Below are positions 308 to 46,935 of a stretch of DNA of 64,000 nucleotides, piece by piece (positions within the stretch are counted from its first letter, which is position 1; every line of letters begins with the position of its first letter). The DNA comes from a virus. Location: the IMG/VR virus record IMGVR_UViG_3300005663_000033, positions 32,001 through 96,000 of that record; one strand, 5' to 3'. The position numbers and the translations under genes are program-made. Below the pieces are notes generated by a model, which saw only the letters and a list, made by a program, of their open reading frames with translations, was not told the DNA's origin and did not search any database.

Positions 308-787
308 TTATGGGACATGTTTTCTTAGTTTTGTTTTTCCATTTACAAGGCAAGATATCGCTGGCTGCGAAACGCCGAATTGTCTAGCTAAAGAAATTTG
401 TGTGGTCCCGTTCCTGTGAAGCTTTATTATCATTGTTTGTTCTTTTAGCGTCAAATGGTGGTAACTAGCCCCAGGTCTCTTGTCTCCATACGATCCCCAA
501 TCGAGGTATCTTTGCGACCGTAATCGACGTGGCTGTTGTCCCCTGGCCTTTCTTATACAAAGTGGTAGTTCCTCGCAGCACAGGCCCTTAAAAGCCGCAC
601 AGACGAGTCTCTGAGTTAGTTTCTTCTTCGCGGAAGACCCCGTGTATGTATATTGAAAACCATCATGATGTATCACCGGATTAATTACGCGCCATCTACC
701 AAAGAACTTACGCCAAATACGGCCTTTCCTGTCGGCAAAATATAATGGATGATCCGGTATTTGTTTTCTATCAATTCGTTTGGTCAT
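308..787 (-). CDS. NUMOD4/HNH-type homing endonuclease-like protein with C-terminal HTH, probably degenerate
   Basis: N-terminal IPDHPLYFADRKGRIW, QRLVCAAFKG (where HRLV is usual) and C-terminal HTH QISLARQFGVSQPAIS; catalytic His residues not evident. Confidence 0.55.
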   Translation of the reverse strand: MTKRIDRKQIPDHPLYFADRKGRIWRKFFGRWRVINPVIHHDGFQYTYTGSSAKKKLTQRLVCAAFKGLCCEELPLCIRKARGQQPRRLRSQRYLDWGSYGDKRPGASYHHLTLKEQTMIIKLHRNGTTQISLARQFGVSQPAISCLVNGKTKLRKHVP

Positions 788-822
788 ATTTTATTCCAAG
801 ATGCAAGACACAAAAGTAGGGA

Positions 823-1047
823 TTAGAAGTCTACCGGATTACTAGCATTCTTTGGTGACCATCTAAGAACGCATCCGTTTTGACCAGGGGCAGGGCAGCA
901 ATGTACAATCCCAAAACAATCGACCACACGATGTGTGGTGCCTCTCAGAGACAAAAATAATTCTCTTGGACGATCAATGCGGTATACCCGTCCATTAAAA
1001 TCGTATTCTCGCCATGCTTCTGACTTCAGTGAATATCGAGTCATCAC
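823..1047 (-). CDS. Hypothetical phage protein
   Basis: 74 aa ORF downstream of promoter copy 2, with an AGGAGA-like RBS. Confidence 0.7.
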   Translation of the reverse strand: MMTRYSLKSEAWREYDFNGRVYRIDRPRELFLSLRGTTHRVVDCFGIVHCCPAPGQNGCVLRWSPKNASNPVDF

Positions 1048-1139: not shown

Positions 1140-1504
1140 CTCTCTTCGATTTTTTTCATCTTTTTTGTCGTCCTATAAAGCGATTGATACAGGCGTTCAG
1201 AAAGGGGCACCCCCTTGTTTAATAAGGCGGGGGACTAGGTGAGAAGGAGTGTATGCGTTTTCTTGTAGGGCATGGATTTTTGGAGCCTAGTATGCCTAAA
1301 CCCCCGGCGGTTATCGGACCTAGCCGAGTTATCGGACCATCCTATATTACCGGCCCACCCCTTAGCCCAGATTTATCGGACCATCTCAGCTAGACATGTT
1401 ATCGGACTATCTTGCATGACATGCAAGGGGAGGTTATCGGACCTATCCTCCTCGCACCCGAACCCTCTTGAGTTATCGGACCAAAAGTTTTTCTTCTCGA
1501 TTTC

Positions 1505-1533
1505 TTGCCTTCGCGCCGATTGTATCCTAGAAT
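1505..1533 (+). promoter_or_regulatory. Sigma70-type promoter
   Basis: TTGCCT-17bp-TAGAAT upstream of the RBS and ORF at 1578. Confidence 0.65.
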
Positions 1534-1577
1534 ATATATGACATGACAACGCACACGACAAACAACGGAGAAAAAAG

Positions 1578-1691
1578 ATGAAACTACTTATCGGACTAAC
1601 GCTTACTGGAATCATCGGCTCTTGTGTTATCGGACTACTCATCAACGCCTACTCCTGGATTGAAGCATCGCTTCATTCAGTAGGCCTTTAA
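1578..1691 (+). CDS. Small hydrophobic protein (37 aa, MKLLIGLTLTGIIGSCVIGLL...)
   Basis: GGAG RBS, ATG, one hydrophobic segment; below the ORF-track length cut-off. Confidence 0.55.
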   Translation: MKLLIGLTLTGIIGSCVIGLLINAYSWIEASLHSVGL

Positions 1692-1702
1692 GGGAGAGAA
1701 TC

Positions 1703-1792
1703 ATGGCGACTATTATTATCGGATGTGCGGCAATGGTGGTTATCGGAGCGGTATGGTTGTGGTCTGTATTATCAGACCTTGAGGGGCTATAA
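1703..1792 (+). CDS. Small hydrophobic protein (29 aa, MATIIIGCAAMVVIGAVWLWSV...)
   Basis: GGGAG RBS; tightly packed between neighbouring ORFs. Confidence 0.5.
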   Translation: MATIIIGCAAMVVIGAVWLWSVLSDLEGL

Positions 1793-1794
1793 CA

Positions 1795-2052
1795 ATGGAC
1801 AAGACACTGGTGAAATATCGGACACTAGGCAGCAAATTTAACAGTTACGCTGTAGTACCTACCCTGTTCTTATCGGGCCTACTCGATTGGCTGAAGTTAT
1901 CGGAATGTGCGACGATCATCTCTACGACCGATAACTATCAGCGGATTCTCCGACAATCTGAGTTATCAGACCTAGCCGCTCCTGAATCATGGCCGAGTTA
2001 TGGGCAGTGTAAAGGTTACATTCTCGCTGTAGACATGCTGGAGTGCCGATAA
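1795..2052 (+). CDS. Hypothetical protein
   Basis: GAGGGG RBS; part of a packed + strand operon. Confidence 0.6.
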   Translation: MDKTLVKYRTLGSKFNSYAVVPTLFLSGLLDWLKLSECATIISTTDNYQRILRQSELSDLAAPESWPSYGQCKGYILAVDMLECR

Positions 2053-2276
2053 TGTTTGGACAAGCTAAACTTGAAATACCCACAAGCGGTAATATCGGAC
2101 CTTCCTGTACCACCGGATTATCAGACCAACTAGCTATGACTATCGGACGTACAGCAGCACGCACGTTATCGGAACAAGATGGGTATGTTGTAGTGACACT
2201 TGAATCAGGATCGGTTCGTGTTATCGGCTATAATACGATCCACGACAAACTCGTTATCGGACGTTTAACCATTTAA
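2052..2276 (+). CDS. Hypothetical protein
   Basis: ATG overlaps the stop of the upstream ORF (TAATG). Confidence 0.55.
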   Translation: MFGQAKLEIPTSGNIGPSCTTGLSDQLAMTIGRTAARTLSEQDGYVVVTLESGSVRVIGYNTIHDKLVIGRLTI

Positions 2277-2287
2277 GGAGCGATAAG

Positions 2288-2644
2288 ATGAGAAACAGAG
2301 TTATCGGACAAACAGGCACGGTGGTGTTATCGGACGATTCGATCTTCCGTAGTAGATCACACAAACGGACCTTGCGCTACCAGTACCTAAAAGTACAGCA
2401 CGGCTGGATTGCGTGGATTTGCGGACCTTTCCATTCTCGGACCTACGGGGTTTGTAGTTTTGGGACCAGAAGAAGGTCGGCTAAAGCAGCACTTGCAACT
2501 CGCCTCGCAAACGATTATCGGTACTTAGGCAATCTAATGTTCTCGGACGTTGATGGGTCCGATACTGTAGGCAAGACCGATGCGCAGTTATTGGACGAAA
2601 CGACGATCAATCATCCGATAATGAGCGAATTGCTAGGCGTGTAG
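2288..2644 (+). CDS. Hypothetical protein
   Basis: AAGGAG RBS; 118 aa. Confidence 0.65.
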   Translation: MRNRVIGQTGTVVLSDDSIFRSRSHKRTLRYQYLKVQHGWIAWICGPFHSRTYGVCSFGTRRRSAKAALATRLANDYRYLGNLMFSDVDGSDTVGKTDAQLLDETTINHPIMSELLGV

Positions 2645-3176
2645 TTATGGGGCGCGAAACCGTTTTCTGGATTAAAACCATACTGTACGCAGGTCTTATA
2701 ACTGTGGCAATGTGGTAAAGATTATGGGACCGGCGACATGCGCAATCGTTGGTCCTATAACTTTGCGCCGACCTTTGTGTTATGGGACGTTGAGCCGTGA
2801 GCGATTATCGGGCCTAAGTATAAACTAGTTTACCCTGTGTGTATTGTCCCATAATACATCGGTTTATGGCGCAAAAACGCCATTTCTTATCGGAAATCAC
2901 TTATAAGACGACTTTTTTATCGGAAAGGGTAGATAACTTCGCGGTTTTTAGCTTTTTCATGGTTATTGGACCCCATATTAGGACTAGCATAACCTGTATT
3001 ACAGGACTTTCCGATAATATCGTGGATTTTGAACAAATAACAGGGTTTTTATAGGCAAACGACCGATATGTGATCTCAAAAAGCGGACTTTGTTACAATT
3101 GCAGATTATCGGTCTAAGTGCGATAATATCGTGGATTAGGGTCTCTAGGCGCGGAAAAGTTTTTTCGGATTATACC

Positions 3177-3205
3177 TTGACGGCGTATATAACTAAGCCT
3201 ATAGT
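3177..3205 (+). promoter_or_regulatory. Near-consensus sigma70 promoter
   Basis: TTGACG-17bp-TATAGT. Confidence 0.7.
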
Positions 3206-3567
3206 ATTATGTAAGAAGAAAAAAGAGAAGCAAAAAACGGACCTTTAGGGGTTTACCTAATGAAGTCGTAAACGAAAAACGGACGAATGATTGTGGTTAG
3301 GTATCTCCGGCATTGACACAATAGGCCGTCGTGTCAAGTGCTCTACGTGGCGTATGTACCGCACGGGGAATTGTAGGGAGCGCTACCGATAGTTCCCGGG
3401 GGTATCTAACCGTTGTCATTCCGATGACCCGCAAGGGTCTGATAATAAGTGACCGGCGCAACGTCGGTCCGAATAAGGGTTTCAGTACGTTACTACTTGT
3501 CCGTCCCATAACGGGACGGAGTAGTCTCGGGCATGGGACGGGCGATAACCTTGCAAGGGGAATCGTT

Positions 3568-3879
3568 ATGTCTAACAGTGCCACTGGAACGATTGTCGAG
3601 TTTGAGTCTGCGACTTTCAAGACCAACGCCGCGATTTATCGGGCGAACAAACGCATGGTCGACGCCGCTAGTCGATACGACAGTGTCGATGACGCAAAGG
3701 CCGGTCTTGATGCAGCGTGGAAAGTTCTTGAAGCTCAGGTTGAAAATGGGTCGGGTTACACTCCCGATTCCAAGCTGGGCTTTGGGTCCGACAATGCCAC
3801 CGTGATTGCCGAGAGTCTGCTCGGTCGTCGCAACAGTGTCGGCGCAACTCGTAAGTCGTTCAACGATCTGGGCAGGTAG
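3568..3879 (+). CDS. Hypothetical protein (MSNSATGTIVEFES...)
   Basis: AAGGGG RBS before the ATG at 3568; the upstream part of the track ORF (from 3331) is hairpin-rich and looks like a leader. Confidence 0.65.
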   Translation: MSNSATGTIVEFESATFKTNAAIYRANKRMVDAASRYDSVDDAKAGLDAAWKVLEAQVENGSGYTPDSKLGFGSDNATVIAESLLGRRNSVGATRKSFNDLGR

Positions 3880-3884
3880 AGTGT

Positions 3885-5275
3885 CTGACGCACCGCGCCT
3901 CTAGCGAAGATAGTCTTGTATAGGCTATGTTTATAGGCCGTTAGGGGCGCGTAACGATGGACATTCTGACTTAAAGTCAGGATTGAATCGCTTGGTAGGG
4001 TAGCACCCTATCGTTATAGGTCCACTATCTAGGATCAGCGGTTCCCATAACCAACCATAGCGGGAGGTCCGATACGCATCGGGTATTCCCGGAAGAGGTT
4101 GGGTAGTAGTCCGATAGTCGCCGTAGTAGGGTCTATAAGCGCGCAGGACGTGCGCTAATGGGTCTCAACCGGAGTCAACGGTTATCGGTCGAACTCCAGT
4201 CTTGAGAAGCGACAAAACGTAGAGTCCAGAATGTGGGCTCAGTCTACGCCCGTAGTACGTGGACGGGATAAGTGACGGATCGTCTACACGATTCCTTGTA
4301 TGTCTGGCAAAGGGTCTTGGTACAGCGCCGAGGCAGCTAGACAGAAAAGGGTAGGTCGTGTTAATCATTTTACGGTCCTTCATGGTAATACGTCTATCGT
4401 TTTGGGGTAGGCTTTCTTTTTGTCGTGGGATAGGCATTTCCAAGGGCAAGTCCTGTAAACTCCGTCACAACAATTTCTTTCGCAAGGGTCTCTCGGGGTA
4501 TTGCTGATAGTTCGAGGGGTCTGAGGTTAGAATGTGGCGCGGTTCACGATCTTGTCGGTTAAGTCTTAGATTGGCACGCAACGGGTATTGTGTGTCCAGT
4601 CTCTGTTACTATTTTGCTGAACGACACGACACGACGGACGGGTTGAATAAACTGGTTCATTGCACTGGCGCAACAGTCTCGGCTCGATTAGTCGTTAAAA
4701 TAAGGATACTAGAAACTGTCCTGGGAAAACGGATAGCCAGATTTCATCTGCCAGGGCATTATCCGCAAAAAGCAGTGGTAGGACCTACGGGTCGGGAAGT
4801 CGTGACGATGGGCTGCATAGTCGTCAGTCACGATGGACAAGTTAGGTGGGTTGGCTTGTCAACTTTTTTGATGGCATATCATTATGGGCTGTGGAGTTAG
4901 CAAAGGGAATAATATGCTGGAAGTTAATCCCTGTAGGGATGCATCTTGAGTTGTCTAGCGCAAGACAATGATTGAGCTTATGGCATATCCCGGCGGGTGA
5001 AAGACGAATCTCTCTTTGTAGGTATCGCTAAAACTACAGGGGTACGATTCGTGGAAAGTCCTCCGATCTAATAGACGGGGGAGGTATTTATGAAGCCACA
5101 CTTGGCGCTACAGCCTGTAATGATGTGTCATCATTCGTGGCGCGTTGTCGAGAGATGGCGCGTCGCATTTGTTTATGGGCGAAGGCAATCCTCGTTGTCG
5201 TGTCCCGGAGGCGGAGCGCGGAGGTTAGAGGTAAACCAGCCGTATAACGCCACGCCATAGATGGGATGGGTTCCA
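3885..5275 (+). ncRNA. Candidate large structured non-coding RNA region
   Basis: No convincing RBS-led ORF. Consecutive hairpins, many with G-U pairs that work on the + strand, e.g. CGCGCCTCTAGCG/CGTTAGGGGCGCG (3895-3951), TCTGACTTAAAGTCAGGA, AGCGCGCAGGACGTGCGCT, GACCTACGGGTC, GACAAGTTAGGTGGGTTGGCTTGTC. Confidence 0.55.
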
Positions 5276-5281
5276 CAAGGA

Positions 5282-5360
5282 AAGCCAGTAGCTCAATTGG
5301 TAGAGTAACTCCAGCCCATGGGCTCGGGGTAGGTTGTGGGTTCGAGTCCCACCTGGCTTT
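5282..5360 (+). tRNA. tRNA-like element with a 13 nt anticodon loop (no assignable anticodon)
   Basis: Acceptor AAGCCAG/CTGGCTT, D-arm GCTC-AATTGGTA-GAGT, T-arm GTGGG-TTCGAGT-CCCAC; the anticodon stem ACTCC/GGGGT encloses AGCCCATGGGCTC. Confidence 0.75.
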
Positions 5361-5452
5361 TTAGGGAGGGCAATAGTGGGAGTTGGATTTTGCAGCCCAA
5401 CAGCGCCGGATTCGGTGGGGTTTCCGGTACACTTTTTCTTTAGGAGATTGCG

Positions 5453-5722
5453 ATGCTGTTGATAATCAATGACACCGATCCGGTCAGCGAAAAGCACCTA
5501 TCCTGGAATATAAAAAGAACGGTAGGCGAGCGTTCGAATGTTCTTAGTTTGTATGAAATAGTCGAAGTCACATACAAACACCCAGACGCCGATGAATTGA
5601 CAATTCAGGTTATAGAGTCAAAACTGATAGACTCGGCCTGCGTACTGTCAAGCAAGGCGGCTTTGTGGATTTTGTTAGAGGCTGCATTTACGGCTATCAG
5701 CACAGACCGGGTGATAGCTTAG
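5453..5722 (+). CDS. Hypothetical protein
   Basis: TAGGAG RBS; 89 aa. Confidence 0.65.
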   Translation: MLLIINDTDPVSEKHLSWNIKRTVGERSNVLSLYEIVEVTYKHPDADELTIQVIESKLIDSACVLSSKAALWILLEAAFTAISTDRVIA

Positions 5723-7375: not shown

Positions 7376-7678
7376 ATGAGAAACTTTCGCGTATTCATGA
7401 AGGCGATGCTTATTAAGGGTCATTGGAAGTATTCTGGCAAGACAAATAAGTTAATAACCAATGGTCAGAGAATGTGGTTAGCATTCAGCATGTTGATAGC
7501 TTCGTTGGTCACACTGGCAACTTTCGGTAGGATCACGTGTTGGGCTGATATTTTCATGGGTCTGAAATATGCCTCTGATACCAAAAAGGGGAATTGCAAT
7601 TACTTTCGTAGGTGGCCAAATTGGTTCTTTTGGGTAGTAATCGCCTGGGCTATCGTAGTGATCGTCCTGAATAGATAA
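7376..7678 (+). CDS. Hypothetical membrane protein
   Basis: Leader AGAGGTACAGAAATG; two hydrophobic segments. Confidence 0.65.
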   Translation: MRNFRVFMKAMLIKGHWKYSGKTNKLITNGQRMWLAFSMLIASLVTLATFGRITCWADIFMGLKYASDTKKGNCNYFRRWPNWFFWVVIAWAIVVIVLNR

Positions 7679-7720
7679 AGGGAAACAGGGGTACAAAATG
7701 TTCTGTAGGGTGGGGATACC

Positions 7721-8011
7721 ATGGACACGACAGAGTTAAAGGTGATCGCTGCGGCACAAAAGGAATTCCTGGAGGCTGGTTATCAATGGCAAGAAAACAT
7801 CTATAACGACGGGTTGGACGACAACTGTTTTGTGAACATGACTAAATCAACCGATCCATGCGCTTTCGGTGTCGGATATCCAGAACCAGAAGACACGGTT
7901 GGTTGGGGTCGCTTTCCCAGGGTGGTCGCGTTACATTTTAGCGGTAATCTTCCGGCCATTATGGACGCCATAGACACTGTTCTGCCAGTAAAAAAGGGGG
8001 GTACAAAATGA
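7721..8011 (+). CDS. Hypothetical protein
   Basis: GGGG RBS; stop overlaps the next start. Confidence 0.6.
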   Translation: MDTTELKVIAAAQKEFLEAGYQWQENIYNDGLDDNCFVNMTKSTDPCAFGVGYPEPEDTVGWGRFPRVVALHFSGNLPAIMDAIDTVLPVKKGGTK

Positions 8012-8355
8012 ACCAACTGGAAATATCTCTAAAACAAAATGGATTTCATGAAATTGAATTGCATGGTCCTACTGCGACTCACGAACACGCATCTTCCATG
8101 TTCCAAATACGAATAAGGGCTGCTTCTGGATTGACACTTTATTTCGTGAATGCGTTCTTCTATAGAAAAATGCAACCACATCTAAAAGATATGATCGAAT
8201 TTGAGGTTCGCTTATATCCATCGATGAACAGCAGATACTGGATCACCTTAGAATTCCATGGGTGTGATCAAGAATTAGATATAGATACGGCTATGGAATT
8301 CTTCCGTCATGCCTACAGCAGTCTGTGGTGTAAGCCAGACCCGCATAACCAATAG
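8008..8355 (+). CDS. Hypothetical protein
   Basis: Leader GGGGGGTACAAAATG; has a degenerate paralog at 9356. Confidence 0.7.
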   Translation: MNQLEISLKQNGFHEIELHGPTATHEHASSMFQIRIRAASGLTLYFVNAFFYRKMQPHLKDMIEFEVRLYPSMNSRYWITLEFHGCDQELDIDTAMEFFRHAYSSLWCKPDPHNQ

Positions 8356-8376
8356 TGGCGACGGGAGGGGTACGAA

Positions 8377-8850
8377 ATGACAATTTCAATCCCGGAAAGT
8401 GAAATGATAGAAGATACTGTTATTTGCACAGCGTGCGGTGGCGACTGTTGTAAAAAATGCTCCGGTGCATATCATCCAGATGACTTAAAGCCAGTCACAG
8501 TAGATTCTCTTGCCAGTAGATTTGCCGATGGTATCTATGCAATCGATTGGTGGGAAGGTGACGTTCGCCCCGGCAAAGACGAATGGCCAATCTCTCTGTT
8601 TATTCGTCCCGCCCACGTTGGGATTACGAAGTTACACGATCCTTCGTGGGGTGGCGTCTGTATTCATTGGAATGCTACGAATGGGTGTTGCTTTGAATTG
8701 CATCACAGACCAAAAACCTGCCGTGAGCTTGTTCCCAAGGATAATGGCAATTGCATCGGTCCGTTTAATAAAGAGGAAGCTGCGATGGCGTGGGTACCAT
8801 ATCAGCAAAAAATAGAAAAAGCGGCGGTAATTGCCAGACAGCAAAGGTAA
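8377..8850 (+). CDS. YkgJ-like CxxCxxxCC cysteine-cluster protein
   Basis: CTACGGDCC near the N-terminus; C-x8-C...RPKTCR at the C-terminus. Confidence 0.65.
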   Translation: MTISIPESEMIEDTVICTACGGDCCKKCSGAYHPDDLKPVTVDSLASRFADGIYAIDWWEGDVRPGKDEWPISLFIRPAHVGITKLHDPSWGGVCIHWNATNGCCFELHHRPKTCRELVPKDNGNCIGPFNKEEAAMAWVPYQQKIEKAAVIARQQR

Positions 8851-9355
8851 GGCATTGCGACAAGAAGGGGTACAAAATGACTGTGAAGTTGATGTACGAA
8901 GCTGCTATAGAAGCGATAGAACATGTCGGTCAGACAAACTGGTCTGGCAGGGTAGAGGCTGCTAAAGTGTGGCTTAAAAGGATTTTGGACGGCAAGACAG
9001 ACAAGAGTCTGGATCAGATTCAAAAGGAAATCAACGAGAATTGAGGTATAAAATGGCAAATGATCTTGGCTTCTTGGAGCCATTGGCGGTTGGTTGGAAC
9101 GATCGAGGACTCGGACACGGAGACTATGGTGTAGTCGATGCGTCTGGAAAACTGATTGCCGAGATCGCAACAGGGCGATACGATCACGCCCTTCTTTTCG
9201 CTACTGCGCCGAAGCTGTTGGAGGGATGTAAGAAAGCGTTGACTTGCAATCTCAATTCAGATGTCCGAGCCCTAATCCAAAACGCTGTTGATGAGATGAT
9301 TCTTCAACAATTCAAATTAAAGCCACCTGGCGAAAAATAGAGAGGCGCAGGGATA

Positions 9356-9511
9356 ATGAACCAATTGGAAGCACTGAGTAGCAAACGCTGGATTACCGTA
9401 GAATTACACGGGTATGACAAGAAATCAGATGTATATGGGGTGATGGGGCTTCATGAACGGCTAAGGAGTTTTTCCGTCATACCTATCATAACCTGTGACG
9501 AAAAGACATAA
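9356..9511 (+). pseudogene. Internally deleted and frameshifted relic of the gene at 8008-8355
   Basis: MNQLE start joined to SSKRWITVELHGYDKKSDV (vs NSRYWITLEFHGCDQELDI). Downstream DNA gctaaggagtttttccgtcatacctat matches gctatggaattcttccgtcatgcctac but out of frame. Confidence 0.65.
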
Positions 9512-9666
9512 AAGGAGGATGAAACATGGTGGTAACAATGTTGTGCAATTACGGAAAACTGAAGATCAATCGTCGATACAAAGCCATAGACGAGGGACTA
9601 GATTGGGTAAAGATAGGGAATTTGTTTGTTTCCAAGGAATTCGTTATTGTGCCGATGAGTTGAATT

Positions 9667-9972
9667 TTGAAGTTGCTAGATAAAGAAGGTAGGCATGTTG
9701 TGAGAATAGAAAATTGGAGCGTCGTGTCTTTTTGTCACCATCCATACTCAGCGCCGGAGACTTGCCAGCTATCATTACATGGCTGCGTTTTTGGCCATCC
9801 CAGGTTTGAAGATGGGACACCTATAACAACGTCGCCAATAATAAGTGTGGACGGCGCAGGTCACATTTTAACCAGAAGCGGAAGCGATTACTTTCTGGGT
9901 AAAGTCGATCCACTCTACGAACGAGCATTCCCAGAAGCGCAAAATAGACTCCTAAATAGTCTCCGTCAATAG
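9667..9972 (+). CDS. Conserved phage hypothetical protein
   Basis: IENWSV...PYSAPE...GHPRFEDGTPITTS pattern common in large phages; start uncertain. Confidence 0.6.
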   Translation: MKLLDKEGRHVVRIENWSVVSFCHHPYSAPETCQLSLHGCVFGHPRFEDGTPITTSPIISVDGAGHILTRSGSDYFLGKVDPLYERAFPEAQNRLLNSLRQ

Positions 9973-10660
9973 CTGCGAGAATTTGCTAAAAGTACCCGTC
10001 TATATAAGACCTCGTGGCGCGAATCAATTGTCTCTTCAAAAGGAGTACAAAATGCTAACACCATCTATAGGAACCTTTGTAAAAATCATTGACGGTAGAA
10101 TCGGTGTGATCGTAGGCAACGAACACAGCGGTGGGGTATTCCGTGGGCACTGCAATGTGTGGTTTGGGATGTGGTCCGCAATTACAGGAGACAGACGAAC
10201 CTGTCAGAGTCTCTATTGTAGGGGTGACACGCCGCGCACAGAACATTTGCTGGTGACTGATGATTGGACAGTAGTCGAAACGCCCGTCGGTTGTATTATC
10301 CTGTAAACATCTCGCTAAAGAATCTTAGCTCTAAGGGGCAAGACGATGAAGGTGTGGTTGATAATAACTGCGGCAATATGGCTGGCGTATGGAATAGCCG
10401 TATTTGTCACAGCAAGAGGGCTTAAGGTGGGCTATGAGGTCTACAAGATACAGAACACATCTGATTGGTCTGGCCAAAAACCTACCGTAATCATAACTGA
10501 AAATGACCCAGGTTGGGAAGAAGCACATGCGCGATGGTTAGATATGAAAAACCCAACCGATAGTCCTGAGTGGAAAAAAGGTGTTATTGCTATCACAAAA
10601 AGAAAAGAAGGTCCGACAAGTGGTTAATGTTGCCCAAGACAACACCAGGAGGATTGAGTT

Positions 10661-11143
10661 ATGAACGTAAGAGACTTTGAGTGTAGGTCATATGAGCAGG
10701 CGGTGGAGTTGCTCGGGGACAAGGACCGACTGACGGTAGGTAACAATACCATGTTGTCACGCGATTCCGTCGACTTTAGCGTAAATGTCGTATTGCACGG
10801 GCAAGACATCGTTTGGTTCCATAGAGACGGACGGGTCGTACTTGATTCTTGTGGGTATCGGACGGAACCCACAAAGGAACGGATCAATAGGTGCCTGCCT
10901 ACTCCTTGGCAATTATGCCAATCTAAAGGGGTGTGGGCCTTGTGGAGATGGGACTTGGAACAGGAGGTGCCGTTTGTGGATGGTATGACAGTACCGGGGA
11001 CGGGGCCGAGCGTGAATCCCCACAATGAAGCACAGGATACGGGAACGAATCTCTGCTCTGAATGTCGCGTGGAGGAACACGACCAGTGTCCTATGACTCC
11101 AGGATGCTCTTGCTGTGCCAATACAGCATTAGAGGGGGAGTGA
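10661..11143 (+). CDS. Hypothetical protein, paralogous to the N-terminus of 30591-31331
   Basis: Shared NNT...LH..D.V....DG...L...G.RT..TK.R.N pattern. Confidence 0.7.
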   Translation: MNVRDFECRSYEQAVELLGDKDRLTVGNNTMLSRDSVDFSVNVVLHGQDIVWFHRDGRVVLDSCGYRTEPTKERINRCLPTPWQLCQSKGVWALWRWDLEQEVPFVDGMTVPGTGPSVNPHNEAQDTGTNLCSECRVEEHDQCPMTPGCSCCANTALEGE

Positions 11144-44846: not shown

Positions 44847-45497
44847 ATGCCGAAATTGATTGATCTTACTGGGAAAAGATTTGGTAGGCTTGTTGTTATC
44901 TGTCGCGACAAGAAAAATCGATTTGGAACACTCTGTTGGTTGTGTTTGTGTGACTGTGGTAAAGAAAAAATTATTCTTTGTGGCAGTCTTAAAAGTGGCA
45001 AGACGAAAAGTTGTGGATGTTTACGAAAAGAAATTATTTCAAAAATAATGACAAAACATGGCCATACGAAGAATAGGAAACAATCTCAAGTCTACAGGTC
45101 GTGGTATCACATAATACAGCGATGTACTAATTCTAACACAAAAGACTACCGTTGGTATGGTAGTCGAGGAATAACTGTTTGCGAACGATGGTTAAAATTC
45201 GAAAATTTTCTTGAGGATATGGGAGAGGCACCAATTGGATATCAAATTGATAGATTGGATAATAATAAAGGGTATTATTTAGAAAATTGTCGGTGGGTTA
45301 CCCCAAAACAAAATGGTCGCAATAAACGAAACAATCATCTGATTACACATAATGGCGAAATACAATGTATATCTGCTTGGGCAGAAGAAACCGGAATAAG
45401 TAAAAATACTATATTGTGGAGAATAACTCACGGTTGGTCACCGGAGAAAACTTTAACTACACCAGGTAAAATGGAGAAAACGAGTGACTGTAACTGA
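44847..45497 (+). CDS. Free-standing HNH homing endonuclease
   Basis: DLTGKRFGRLVV, CLCDCG, SCGC, YGSRGITVCERW..FENFLEDMG, IDRLDNNKGY..ENCRW. Confidence 0.88.
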   Translation: MPKLIDLTGKRFGRLVVICRDKKNRFGTLCWLCLCDCGKEKIILCGSLKSGKTKSCGCLRKEIISKIMTKHGHTKNRKQSQVYRSWYHIIQRCTNSNTKDYRWYGSRGITVCERWLKFENFLEDMGEAPIGYQIDRLDNNKGYYLENCRWVTPKQNGRNKRNNHLITHNGEIQCISAWAEETGISKNTILWRITHGWSPEKTLTTPGKMEKTSDCN

Positions 45498-46935
45498 AAT
45501 AAAGCCAAAAGTTATCACAATTTTTCCAGAGCGCGGGATTATCGTGGATAAGAATTTAGTAAATTTGAACGAACAATTCCGAAAATTGCCATCTTTTGTG
45601 GCTGATTTTTTGGTCGCAGAAATGGTAGATAGTGATAACCCCGCTCCAGGTTTGGAACGCATTAATCAACTTCTAAGTGATCATTATATGGAATCCGACC
45701 AAAGGGAGCTTGTGAAGAGTAAAATTCGTGAAAAAGGAGAGTATACTCTTCTAGGGAATATCCGTTGTAGATATGATGATGGCAAGGATGAATATTGGGC
45801 TGATGTTGTGGCACTCGGGAATCAGTACATCCGCATAGACCCATACCTTATCGCCGAACACGGAGAAACTCTATTAACCACCGGCGCTTGGGGGATATTT
45901 CAAATCACATATGATGATTCATACGTCATGAGAAATAAACTATATCCATTTTTAATAACCAAGTTCCGTCCTATACAGATTACGAGAATTGATGTTGATA
46001 CCTGGATCAAACGTAGATCCCAGTTCACAAATGAAGAATGGCTAGATTTAATGATTACGAGTGTCGGCTTTGATCCCACCCATCTTTCTGAAGAAGAAAA
46101 ATGGTTGTATATGGTAAGGATGGTTCCATTTATTGAACCAAATGTCAATATGGTAGAACTCGGCCCCACCATGACCGGAAAAACATTTGCGTGCCAATCT
46201 CTCAGTGCTCATGGATTTGTGATTTCTGGCTCCCAAACAACAGTGGCGTCTTTATTTTATGATAAACTGCGAAGACAATTGGGGTTAATAGGCTATAGAG
46301 ACGTCGTTGCGTTTGACGAATTCACCAATAGTCGCGGTGGGAACAAATGGTCTGGACACAGCGGTTTAGTAGACATCCTCAAAGATTTCATGAATTCTGG
46401 AAGATTCGGTCGTGGTACTGCTGAATTTGCTTCGGATTGTTCTTTGATGTTCATGGGAAATATTGATTGCGATAGAGACAAGAGGGCTGTTTCGGTAAGA
46501 TATCGGAGTCTTTTCTCACCATTTCCACAAATAGTTAGTCAAGATAGGGCATTTATTGATCGTATCCATGGATTCATTCCAGGTTGGCGAATAGGGCCGA
46601 TTAGAGAATCCAACCTTGCCAAAGGTTTAGGGTTTATGGCTGACTATATGTCTGAAATAATGCACAGAATGAGAGATCGTAATTATGCTAATGTCATATT
46701 ACAAAATGTGGATTTCGGGAAAATGGGACAAAGAGATCAGAGATCGCTTGTTCGTATAGGGTCTGGTTTACTGAAATTGGTGTTCCCCCACAGAATAGTC
46801 GAAACTGTAGAACCTAATGAACTGAAAACCGTTTTGGATATGGCGGTCGATCTGCGACAGAGAGTGTTGGACCAGCTAGCAATAATTTCTCCTGGTGAAT
46901 TCAAGGGTGTTAAATTGGAGTATAAAGTTAAATGA
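45484..46935 (+). CDS. BrxL-like AAA+ ATPase lacking the C-terminal Lon protease domain
   Basis: R..FT.EEWLDL...S.G, ELGPTMTGKT, DVVAFDE, LKDFM.SG.F.RG, GNID, AFIDRIHGFIPGW. Confidence 0.85.
   Translation: MTVTEIKPKVITIFPERGIIVDKNLVNLNEQFRKLPSFVADFLVAEMVDSDNPAPGLERINQLLSDHYMESDQRELVKSKIREKGEYTLLGNIRCRYDDGKDEYWADVVALGNQYIRIDPYLIAEHGETLLTTGAWGIFQITYDDSYVMRNKLYPFLITKFRPIQITRIDVDTWIKRRSQFTNEEWLDLMITSVGFDPTHLSEEEKWLYMVRMVPFIEPNVNMVELGPTMTGKTFACQSLSAHGFVISGSQTTVASLFYDKLRRQLGLIGYRDVVAFDEFTNSRGGNKWSGHSGLVDILKDFMNSGRFGRGTAEFASDCSLMFMGNIDCDRDKRAVSVRYRSLFSPFPQIVSQDRAFIDRIHGFIPGWRIGPIRESNLAKGLGFMADYMSEIMHRMRDRNYANVILQNVDFGKMGQRDQRSLVRIGSGLLKLVFPHRIVETVEPNELKTVLDMAVDLRQRVLDQLAIISPGEFKGVKLEYKVK

Follow-up and report, generated by a model that had tools for sequence, protein, structure and literature searches.

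A gene-free stretch with a strand-specific fold

The question raised by positions 3885-5275 of this phage DNA is whether a stretch rich in hairpins and devoid of any credible gene encodes a large structured RNA and, if so, of what kind and with what mode of action. The window, by which we mean the whole stretch of 64,000 nt that was analysed, corresponds to positions 32001-96000 of a 113-kb IMG/VR virus record that is 68% complete by CheckV. Its genes are phage-like, and almost all of them lie on the + strand past a strand switch near position 1300. The original prediction, made from the letters of the window, read 3885-5275 as a large structured phage ncRNA transcribed from the + strand. The central claim stands, given covariation across ~22 loci and a negative comparison with Rfam; the prediction erred on the extent of the RNA, on a neighbouring gene and on the likeness to the GOLLD and ROOL RNAs.

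The underlying observation, a gene-free and strongly folded stretch, is confirmed and lies well past chance. There is no long or conserved ORF in 3885-5275, the longest being at most 122 aa, and the chance ORFs are placed differently in each relative. We looked among the relatives for a conserved ORF downstream of the P0002 gene, which precedes the RNA, and found none; Pfam searches with the chance ORFs at 4532-4900 and 5090-5260 gave no match. TAA, TAG and TGA are all present in each frame of 3885-5275 and in all six frames of 3800-5300. In comparisons with four relatives, substitutions were spread evenly over the three codon positions of the RNA region (25/27/25; 86/87/86); against the same four relatives, the gene at 3568-3879 showed an excess at third positions (e.g. 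22/23/56). An alternative genetic code or a hidden ORF was rejected on account of the stops in six frames (3800-5300) together with the lack of codon periodicity.

When folding was compared with that of dinucleotide shuffles, the + strand was far more stable than the shuffled sequences and the - strand was not. On the + strand, 3885-4580 folded at -273.7 kcal/mol (z -6.8) and 4581-5275 at -254.0 kcal/mol (z -5.6), against z-scores of -1.4 and -2.1, respectively, for the same two segments on the - strand. A 200-nt sliding scan placed the low-z zone of the + strand at ~3300-5400. The assignment to the + strand, originally based on G-U pairs, holds up: compensatory changes and G-U pairs are workable on that strand only.

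The RNA probably shares a transcription unit with a small protein gene

The sequence upstream of and including the RNA contains the following features:

3177..3205, + strand: sigma-70-type early promoter TTGACG-17-TATAGT, 10 of 12 matches
3212..3567, + strand: 5′ leader, sliding z -1.9 to -3.9
3568..3879, + strand: P0002 gene, encoding a 103-aa protein predicted to be all-helical (115 homologs, third-position bias, AlphaFold2)
3881..4870, + strand: conserved RNA core, ~990 nt with at least 35 helices (blastn, RNAalifold; no Rfam family)

The flagged stretch had been described as lying downstream of a near-consensus promoter at 3177. We recovered this promoter, and it is conserved in relatives: window 3160-3242 is 74-89% identical in L002, L006, L022, L024 and L028, and the hexamers themselves are conserved in L002. 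Transcription would start at ~3212. The 3′ half of the leader (3441-3567) is hairpin-rich, includes the ribosome-binding site of the P0002 gene and has a DNA sequence that is kept in almost every relative; blastn alignments begin at 3417-3441 for nearly all relatives. What the original prediction overlooked is P0002 itself, a real and conserved 103-aa gene. Since this gene separates the promoter from the RNA, we read the RNA as the 3′ portion of a transcription unit that also encodes the protein. We conclude that promoter, leader, P0002 and RNA are one conserved unit, the promoter being included for those relatives in which it could be checked, and that this unit comes first after a strong, conserved promoter of early type.

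Two further elements were seen in this region. A long near-perfect hairpin, ACTACTTGTCCGTCCC...GGGACGGAGTAGT, lies within leader positions 3441-3567 and probably serves as an operator controlling the translation of P0002. A 17-nt sequence, CGATAATATCGTGGATT, is repeated exactly and in direct orientation at 3012-3028 and 3121-3137, shortly before the 3177 promoter, and the two copies may be an operator pair.

Searches of metagenome protein collections gave 115 homologs of P0002 at E<=1e-3, with values down to 4e-50, and the gene ends at a normal stop in all 115. The AlphaFold2 model is all-helical (pLDDT 91.7), and the net charge, from a by-eye residue count, is slightly negative. P0002 has no Pfam family, no match to its fold in Foldseek searches of PDB and BFVD (E>0.6) or by VIA-align (best Z 3.6), and no recognisable RNA-binding fold by any of these three methods; no relative was found in GTDB genomes. 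The P0002 gene is directly upstream of the RNA in all loci, an adjacency that owes something to the way in which the loci were collected, most of them via P0002.

The RNA is conserved in ~22 loci and forms two subfamilies

Loci were fetched via P0002 from metagenomes (16) and IMG/VR (10), and the structure work used ~22 of the ~115 P0002-linked loci. The element was found in ~22 related loci on viral and metagenome contigs, with one copy per genome at the same position in all relatives. The phages concerned form an uncultivated clade; the IMG/VR contigs that contain the element range from ~40 to 181 kb, several being 160-181 kb. By blastn, window 3441 to ~4800 is 67-92% identical in ~19 loci. 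In the distant loci L018, L019 and L030, P0002 is only 47-51% identical and its coding DNA no longer aligns, yet identity remains at 77-81% in the non-coding core (~3950-4470). Judged by these identities, the RNA core is better conserved than the adjoining P0002 gene in distant relatives. The extent of 1.4 kb given originally proved too large, in that the conserved RNA occupies only ~3881-4870 (~990 nt), with 4871-5275 being lineage-specific although structured.

No DNA relative was found in GenBank phages (blastn of 3200-5500 against 50,697 phage records), and no protein relative was found there either. Exact-motif scans of IMG/VR with two motifs returned a single relative, already in the set, and a 15-mer from the RNA occurred at 32 places in IMG/VR, only four of them true and all four already in the set.

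We built covariance models of two parts of the core, R1 from 4092-4244 and R2 from 4640-4776. Model R1 reached 160 bits in the window; of the held-out truncated loci, L015 scored 108 bits and L016 48 bits. It did not find the divergent loci L020, L023, L026, L027 and L029, and the R1 domain is therefore not universal. Model R2, in contrast, matched L026, L027 and L029 at 50-57 bits (E 1e-12 to 9e-11). Because R1 misses the divergent loci and R2 finds three of them, we distinguish two subfamilies which, as far as the alignments and models reveal, have the 5′ helix and the 3′ domain in common and differ in the middle. Model R2 also gave a weak match on the - strand at window 736-911, near the strand switch (19.9 bits, E ~0.007), which is probably due to chance.

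Covariation supports a chain of closed domains

RNAalifold on 12 full-length loci gave 198 consensus pairs in 35 helices, with double-sided changes in 97 of the pairs by RNAalifold and 98 by pair count. The observed alignment was compared with shuffles and with a control in which pairing partners were slid by 1-3 columns. Paired cells amounted to 94.1% in the observed alignment, 84.5±0.4% in shuffles and 35-41% with slid partners; pairs with double changes numbered 98, 46±4 and 29-40, respectively; and the covariation score was 0.413, 0.222 and 0.08-0.10. None of 500 shuffles matched the observed value on any measure. The search for homologs, with ~22 loci, and the covariation in the RNAalifold alignment thus both come out in favour of a structured RNA. 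Part of the covariation signal is phylogenetic, since the alignments consist of 12-19 related sequences; the slid-partner control argues against phylogeny as the whole of it.

Other treatments of the alignment led to the same helices. A strict scan of column pairs (at least 90% canonical pairing, at least four stacked pairs, at least two with double change) recovered 11 consensus helices, among which are the long-range helices 4095-4102/4196-4203, 4286-4292/4355-4361 and 4421-4427/4625-4631, and added two short stems outside the consensus. Compensatory helices are visible in a MAFFT alignment, for example CCGCGCCUC...GGGGCGCG flanking an insert of variable length, and domain alignments with 17 and 12 sequences are concordant with the structure. 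Mutual information with APC on 19 sequences was noisy and added no tertiary pairs. Taken together, we regard the existence of a ~1-kb RNA family at 3881-4870 (+) as practically certain.

The core is a chain of closed domains (3883-4044, 4061-4091, 4095-4240, 4241-4413, 4421-4631 and 4651-4764) followed by a variable stretch, and it contains many invariant unpaired stretches. No helix joins the 5′ and 3′ ends, and the element could therefore be a chain of separately acting domains. Its parts are as follows:

3883..4044, + strand: domain 1, helices 2-8; 22 pairs with double changes; variable-length insert in helix 3 (3903-3942)
3883-3890/3955-3962, 3894-3902/3943-3951 and 3963-3970/3976-3983, + strand: helices of domain 1
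3987-3992/4037-4042, 3993-4001/4005-4013 and 4019-4023/4032-4036, + strand: further helices of domain 1
4061..4240, + strand: domains 2-3, helices 9-17 (alignments, model R1)
4109-4120/4179-4190, + strand: helix 12 of domains 2-3, an inverted pair of the upstream array motif
4241..4413, + strand: domain 4, helices 19-25, closed by helix 18 (4241-4250/4404-4413)
4323..4326, + strand: 5′ partner of a candidate kissing loop, CAGY, in the loop of helix 25
4421..4631, + strand: domain 5, helices 27-32, closed by long-range helix 26
4503..4506, + strand: RCUG, helix 31 loop; 3′ side of the same candidate contact
4640..4776, + strand: domains 6-7; compensatory change in 12 of 17 pairs; common to the divergent subfamily
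4651-4654/4674-4677, + strand: helix 33 of domains 6-7
4704-4708/4760-4764 and 4717-4724/4751-4758, + strand: helices 34-35 of domains 6-7, a long hairpin

Compensatory change affects eight of the 12 pairs of helix 20 and all six pairs of helix 25, whereas helix 26 is nearly invariant (TGTCGTG at 4421-4427, CACGACA at 4625-4631). Most of the stems picked out from the window alone are real and conserved. That at 3895-3951 corresponds to helix 3 (3894-3902/3943-3951) with its variable insert, those at 3965-3982 and 4138-4156 to helices 4 and 15, and that at 4198-4248 takes in helices 16-17; the stem at 4836-4860 is a conserved terminal hairpin. The stems at 4800-4833, 4936-4991 and 5005-5051 fall in lineage-specific sequence.

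A search for loop-loop contacts returned a single candidate (4323-4326/4503-4506), with none in a parallel-orientation control. Across 14 sequences the two loops read CAGC/GCUG in ten, CAGU/ACUG in three and CAGU/GCUG in one, the last being a G-U intermediate, with no violation. This candidate CAGY/RCUG contact would link domains 4 and 5, either within one molecule or between molecules.

Motifs shared with an upstream repeat array

Upstream of the unit lies a strand-biased array of the motif (g/a)TTATCGGAC, with the variant TTATAGGAC, at window 1312-3107; the spacing is irregular, from 18 to 290 bp. Arrays of 25-70 copies occur upstream of the unit in every relative checked, though much weaker in L027; they were seen in the 1.7-4.3 kb upstream of the P0002 homologs of L008, L021-L024, L026 and L028-L030. 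The TTATCGGAC array is thus a syntenic block upstream of the promoter-protein-RNA unit.

Array 8-mers recur at conserved positions of the RNA: GTTATAGG at 4014, GTCCGATA at 4068 and 4109, and GTTATCGG at 4181. Those at 4014-4021 and 4068-4075 are single copies of the array motif, and the 3′ strand of helix 12 is conserved beyond the needs of pairing. The motif sharing between RNA and array could, on this comparison, reflect common descent from the array and not function.

A second motif, GGGTCT, has seven copies on the + strand between 3139 and 4522 and none on the - strand there. Four of the copies form two similar, invariant GGGTCT-hairpin-GGGTCT modules at 4129-4165, within domains 2-3, and at 4486-4522, within domain 5; the other three are at 3139, 3435 and 4312. 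Motifs of the GGGTCT and TTATCGG types are invariant and hence provide no covariation evidence. Being without covariation, the GGGTCT modules may be tertiary or protein contacts.

The 3′ end, a lineage-specific extension and tRNA-like elements

Four features mark the end of the core and the sequence behind it:

4836..4869, + strand: terminal hairpin with a GGTGGG motif, then a T-run (aligned in L014, L021, L024, L027, L028, L029 and L030)
4871..5130, + strand: 3′ extension restricted to this lineage; a long-range helix of 24 bp (4871-4894/5107-5130) closes it
5137..5166, + strand: second, non-conserved terminator-like site, a G+C-rich hairpin of 13 bp with a T-rich tail
5282..5360, + strand: tRNA-like element, Rfam tRNA 50.2 bits, ~410 nt downstream of the core

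From its sequence and alignment, the hairpin and T-run at 4836-4869 probably act as an intrinsic terminator and mark where the core ends on its 3′ side. When 4871-5275 was sought in the relatives it was matched only in L030. The fold of 4871-5280 nevertheless has a z-score of -4.05, and L030 retains both strands of the 24-bp helix, in which three changes are compensatory and one position is mismatched. This helix also accounts for the apparent conservation in L030 of the N-terminus of a 56-aa ORF at 5090. We take 4871-5275 for a 3′ module peculiar to this lineage, which would be either an RNA of its own or an extension made by read-through.

The tRNA-like element that had been placed at the end of the flagged stretch is present at 5282-5360. 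Its anticodon loop has 15 nt, compared with 9 in the model, and the 12-nt palindrome AGCCCATGGGCT serves as the loop; the palindrome is a possible dimerisation or kissing site. Oversized tRNA-like elements also lie downstream of the RNA in L017 (1789-1907), L019 (1644-1730), L030 (7099-7194) and L026 (6799-6863), and such elements reach the Rfam tRNA threshold despite inserts of ~6 to 45 nt in the anticodon region. L024 has a normal tRNA-Asp directly behind the RNA.

The RNA matches no known family

Rfam 15 (4227 models) was searched with cmscan, at gathering thresholds over the whole window and 15 related loci, and at E<=10 over 2600-5600. At gathering thresholds, the window and the 15 relatives yielded only tRNAs, in line with the earlier remark that the element could not be assigned to a known class; at E<=10, matches in 2600-5600 other than the tRNA were at chance level. 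It follows that GOLLD, ROOL, OLE, HEARO, raiA, RNase P, tmRNA, 6S and the group I and II introns are unmatched. Likewise, there was no Rfam match to RNase P RNA, tmRNA, 6S, SRP RNA or rRNA, and ARAGORN found no tmRNA in the window or the relatives. We rejected membership of GOLLD and of ROOL, as neither covariance model is matched in the window or in the 15 related loci. A group I intron was rejected for want of an Rfam Intron_gpI match, and a group II intron because no Rfam match appeared at E<=10, P0002 ends normally in 115/115 homologs and the record has no RVT_1. For YrlA/Ro60 the best score was only 19.5 bits (E 0.93) at 5306-5426, compared with a gathering score of 69 bits. The record contains no TROVE (Ro60) or RtcB domain and no reverse transcriptase (RVT_1); as it is 68% complete, the absence of TROVE and RtcB is not final.

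The core is longer than 500 nt and non-coding and has many covarying helices and highly conserved nucleotides, the features of large ornate structured ncRNAs, reportedly a descriptive class of Breaker and co-workers. ROOL RNAs are ~580 nt long and have no known protein partner. The present RNA resembles them as a large ornate RNA of phages or prophages, often near tRNAs, but is ~1.7 times longer and is constantly linked to a protein gene. OLE RNA, a bacterial (Bacillota) RNA of ~600 nt, is membrane-associated and forms a ribonucleoprotein with OapA/B/C. As a large ornate RNA with dedicated, genetically linked small proteins it is a model for the idea that the RNA works with P0002; however, there is no sequence or model match, no membrane segment is predicted for P0002, and its fold is none of those known. 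With GOLLD the present RNA shares its phage origin, a length of more than 800 nt, ornate helices backed by covariation and nearby tRNA genes. The setting is likewise of the GOLLD type, namely an IMG/VR virus record with tRNA or tRNA-like elements downstream in the window, L017, L019, L024, L026 and L030. Helices and sequence are unrelated, however, and the present RNA lies in an early region behind a small protein gene and a repeat array. By cryo-EM, GOLLD is a 14-mer cage and ROOL a nanocage, and both are phage-borne, large and ornate, with tRNA genes near (PMC12286853). The likeness to GOLLD and ROOL suggested originally is therefore one of size and setting only, since neither covariance model matches. 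A survey of structured RNAs in IMG/VR does not describe such an RNA, as its candidates average 67 nt (PMC10690425), and a full-text search of the literature found no description of one. We conclude from these sequence and model comparisons that the core RNA is a previously uncatalogued family with no Rfam counterpart.

An RNA with a proposed early role as a folded molecule in trans

The best explanation overall, to which we assign a probability of roughly 0.7, is an uncatalogued ~1-kb phage RNA, made early, that would act as a folded molecule in trans. Leader, protein and RNA would be transcribed early as one unit, with termination at ~4870, and the RNA part would persist as a compact, folded, trans-acting molecule with at least two domains apparently tied by the kissing loop. 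Such an RNA would act by its shape, most likely as a protein-binding scaffold or decoy, and neither as a messenger nor as a cis-regulator; P0002 and whatever factor recognises the TTATCGGAC motif would be the obvious candidate partners. To this mechanism, a trans-acting ribonucleoprotein, scaffold or decoy, we give slightly less than an even chance. A more detailed version, in which the RNA and P0002 form an early ribonucleoprotein sharing a recognition motif with the TTATCGGAC array, so that the RNA would be a decoy or feedback partner for the array-reading factor, strikes us as improbable; if true, the array-motif decoy would be a TFIIIA/5S-like case of dual DNA and RNA recognition controlling early transcription or replication.

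Other explanations place the function elsewhere. The RNA could be a self-assembling, RNA-only particle, functionally like GOLLD or ROOL, that forms a homo-oligomer via loop-loop or A-minor contacts and perhaps acts on the adjacent tRNA-like RNAs. Its phage origin, size and ornate fold, and the tRNA or tRNA-like genes close downstream in several relatives, would suit such a particle (cf. PMC12286853); moreover, the covarying CAGY/RCUG contact could be intermolecular, and the adjoining tRNA-like element has a 12-nt palindromic loop. However, the covariance models of GOLLD and ROOL are unmatched, we found no conserved palindromic loop inside the core, and the RNA follows a protein gene in the early region instead of belonging to a tRNA island, so that we consider the particle unlikely. 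Its position behind P0002 could instead mean that the RNA acts in cis, as a giant 3′ UTR or attenuator that stabilises or regulates the P0002 message and sets read-through at 4836-4869 into the tRNA-like element and the early genes. The RNA would share its transcript with P0002, as far as promoters could be detected, the leader is structured too, and the RNA, which has a conserved terminator-like end, is placed between the early promoter and the early gene run. What makes us doubt this strongly is the element itself: known bacterial cis-regulators come nowhere near its ~1 kb, its 35 or more conserved helices and its long, invariant unpaired strands, and it is better conserved than the gene whose expression it would control.

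A large ribozyme, resembling either a self-splicing intron (group I, group II) or RNase P, or else a mobile RNA element, might likewise be expected to have such a size, numerous invariant unpaired nucleotides and a GTG that is conserved close to the 5′ end. We think this very improbable, because nothing in Rfam among group I, group II, RNase P or any ribozyme is matched even at E<=10, and there is no interrupted host gene and there are no exons, but one copy per genome at the same position. Nor is there a reverse transcriptase in the record, and neither within the RNA nor immediately after it did we find a conserved ORF, whether for a maturase, a homing endonuclease or anything else; LAGLIDADG domains occur elsewhere, in inteins. 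The remaining alternative denies that the element is one molecule and takes it for a string of independent small structured RNAs, or of DNA-level protein-binding sites derived from the adjoining array. That the whole lacks a closing helix, contains array-type 8-mers and has 5′ domains that are unlike between the two subfamilies with a 3′ domain in common is consistent with such a string. Yet the order and spacing of the domains are constant in all relatives, a covarying contact joins domains 4 and 5, and compensatory changes with G-U pairs, on the + strand only, point to selection on RNA pairing and not on duplex DNA; we hold out little hope for this alternative.

RNAs of this size and complexity are rare in bacteria and phages, the known classes being ribozymes, ribonucleoprotein scaffolds and self-assembling cages. 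The family described here adds a ~1-kb example with a well-supported secondary structure, a fixed small-protein partner, a defined promoter and end, and a link to a repeat array, and it is a concrete target for cryo-EM, pull-downs and metatranscriptome mapping. A folded RNA acting in trans would show that large phages put early transcription into an RNA machine instead of a protein.

Other genes of the phage

The genome in the window also encodes a ribonucleotide reductase, a GMP-reductase-like protein, a BrxL-like ATPase and intein-bearing genes. The gene for the BrxL-like Lon-type ATPase is at window 45484-46932 (Pfam BrxL_ATPase E 4.5e-104; BrxL_N E 1.3e-28); BrxL is otherwise a component of BREX defence systems. 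Intein splicing and LAGLIDADG domains were seen in two large genes (G000:C1:3575-6940 and 7512-10733, - strand; loci L063), one of which encodes a protein like GDP-mannose 4,6-dehydratase/epimerase.
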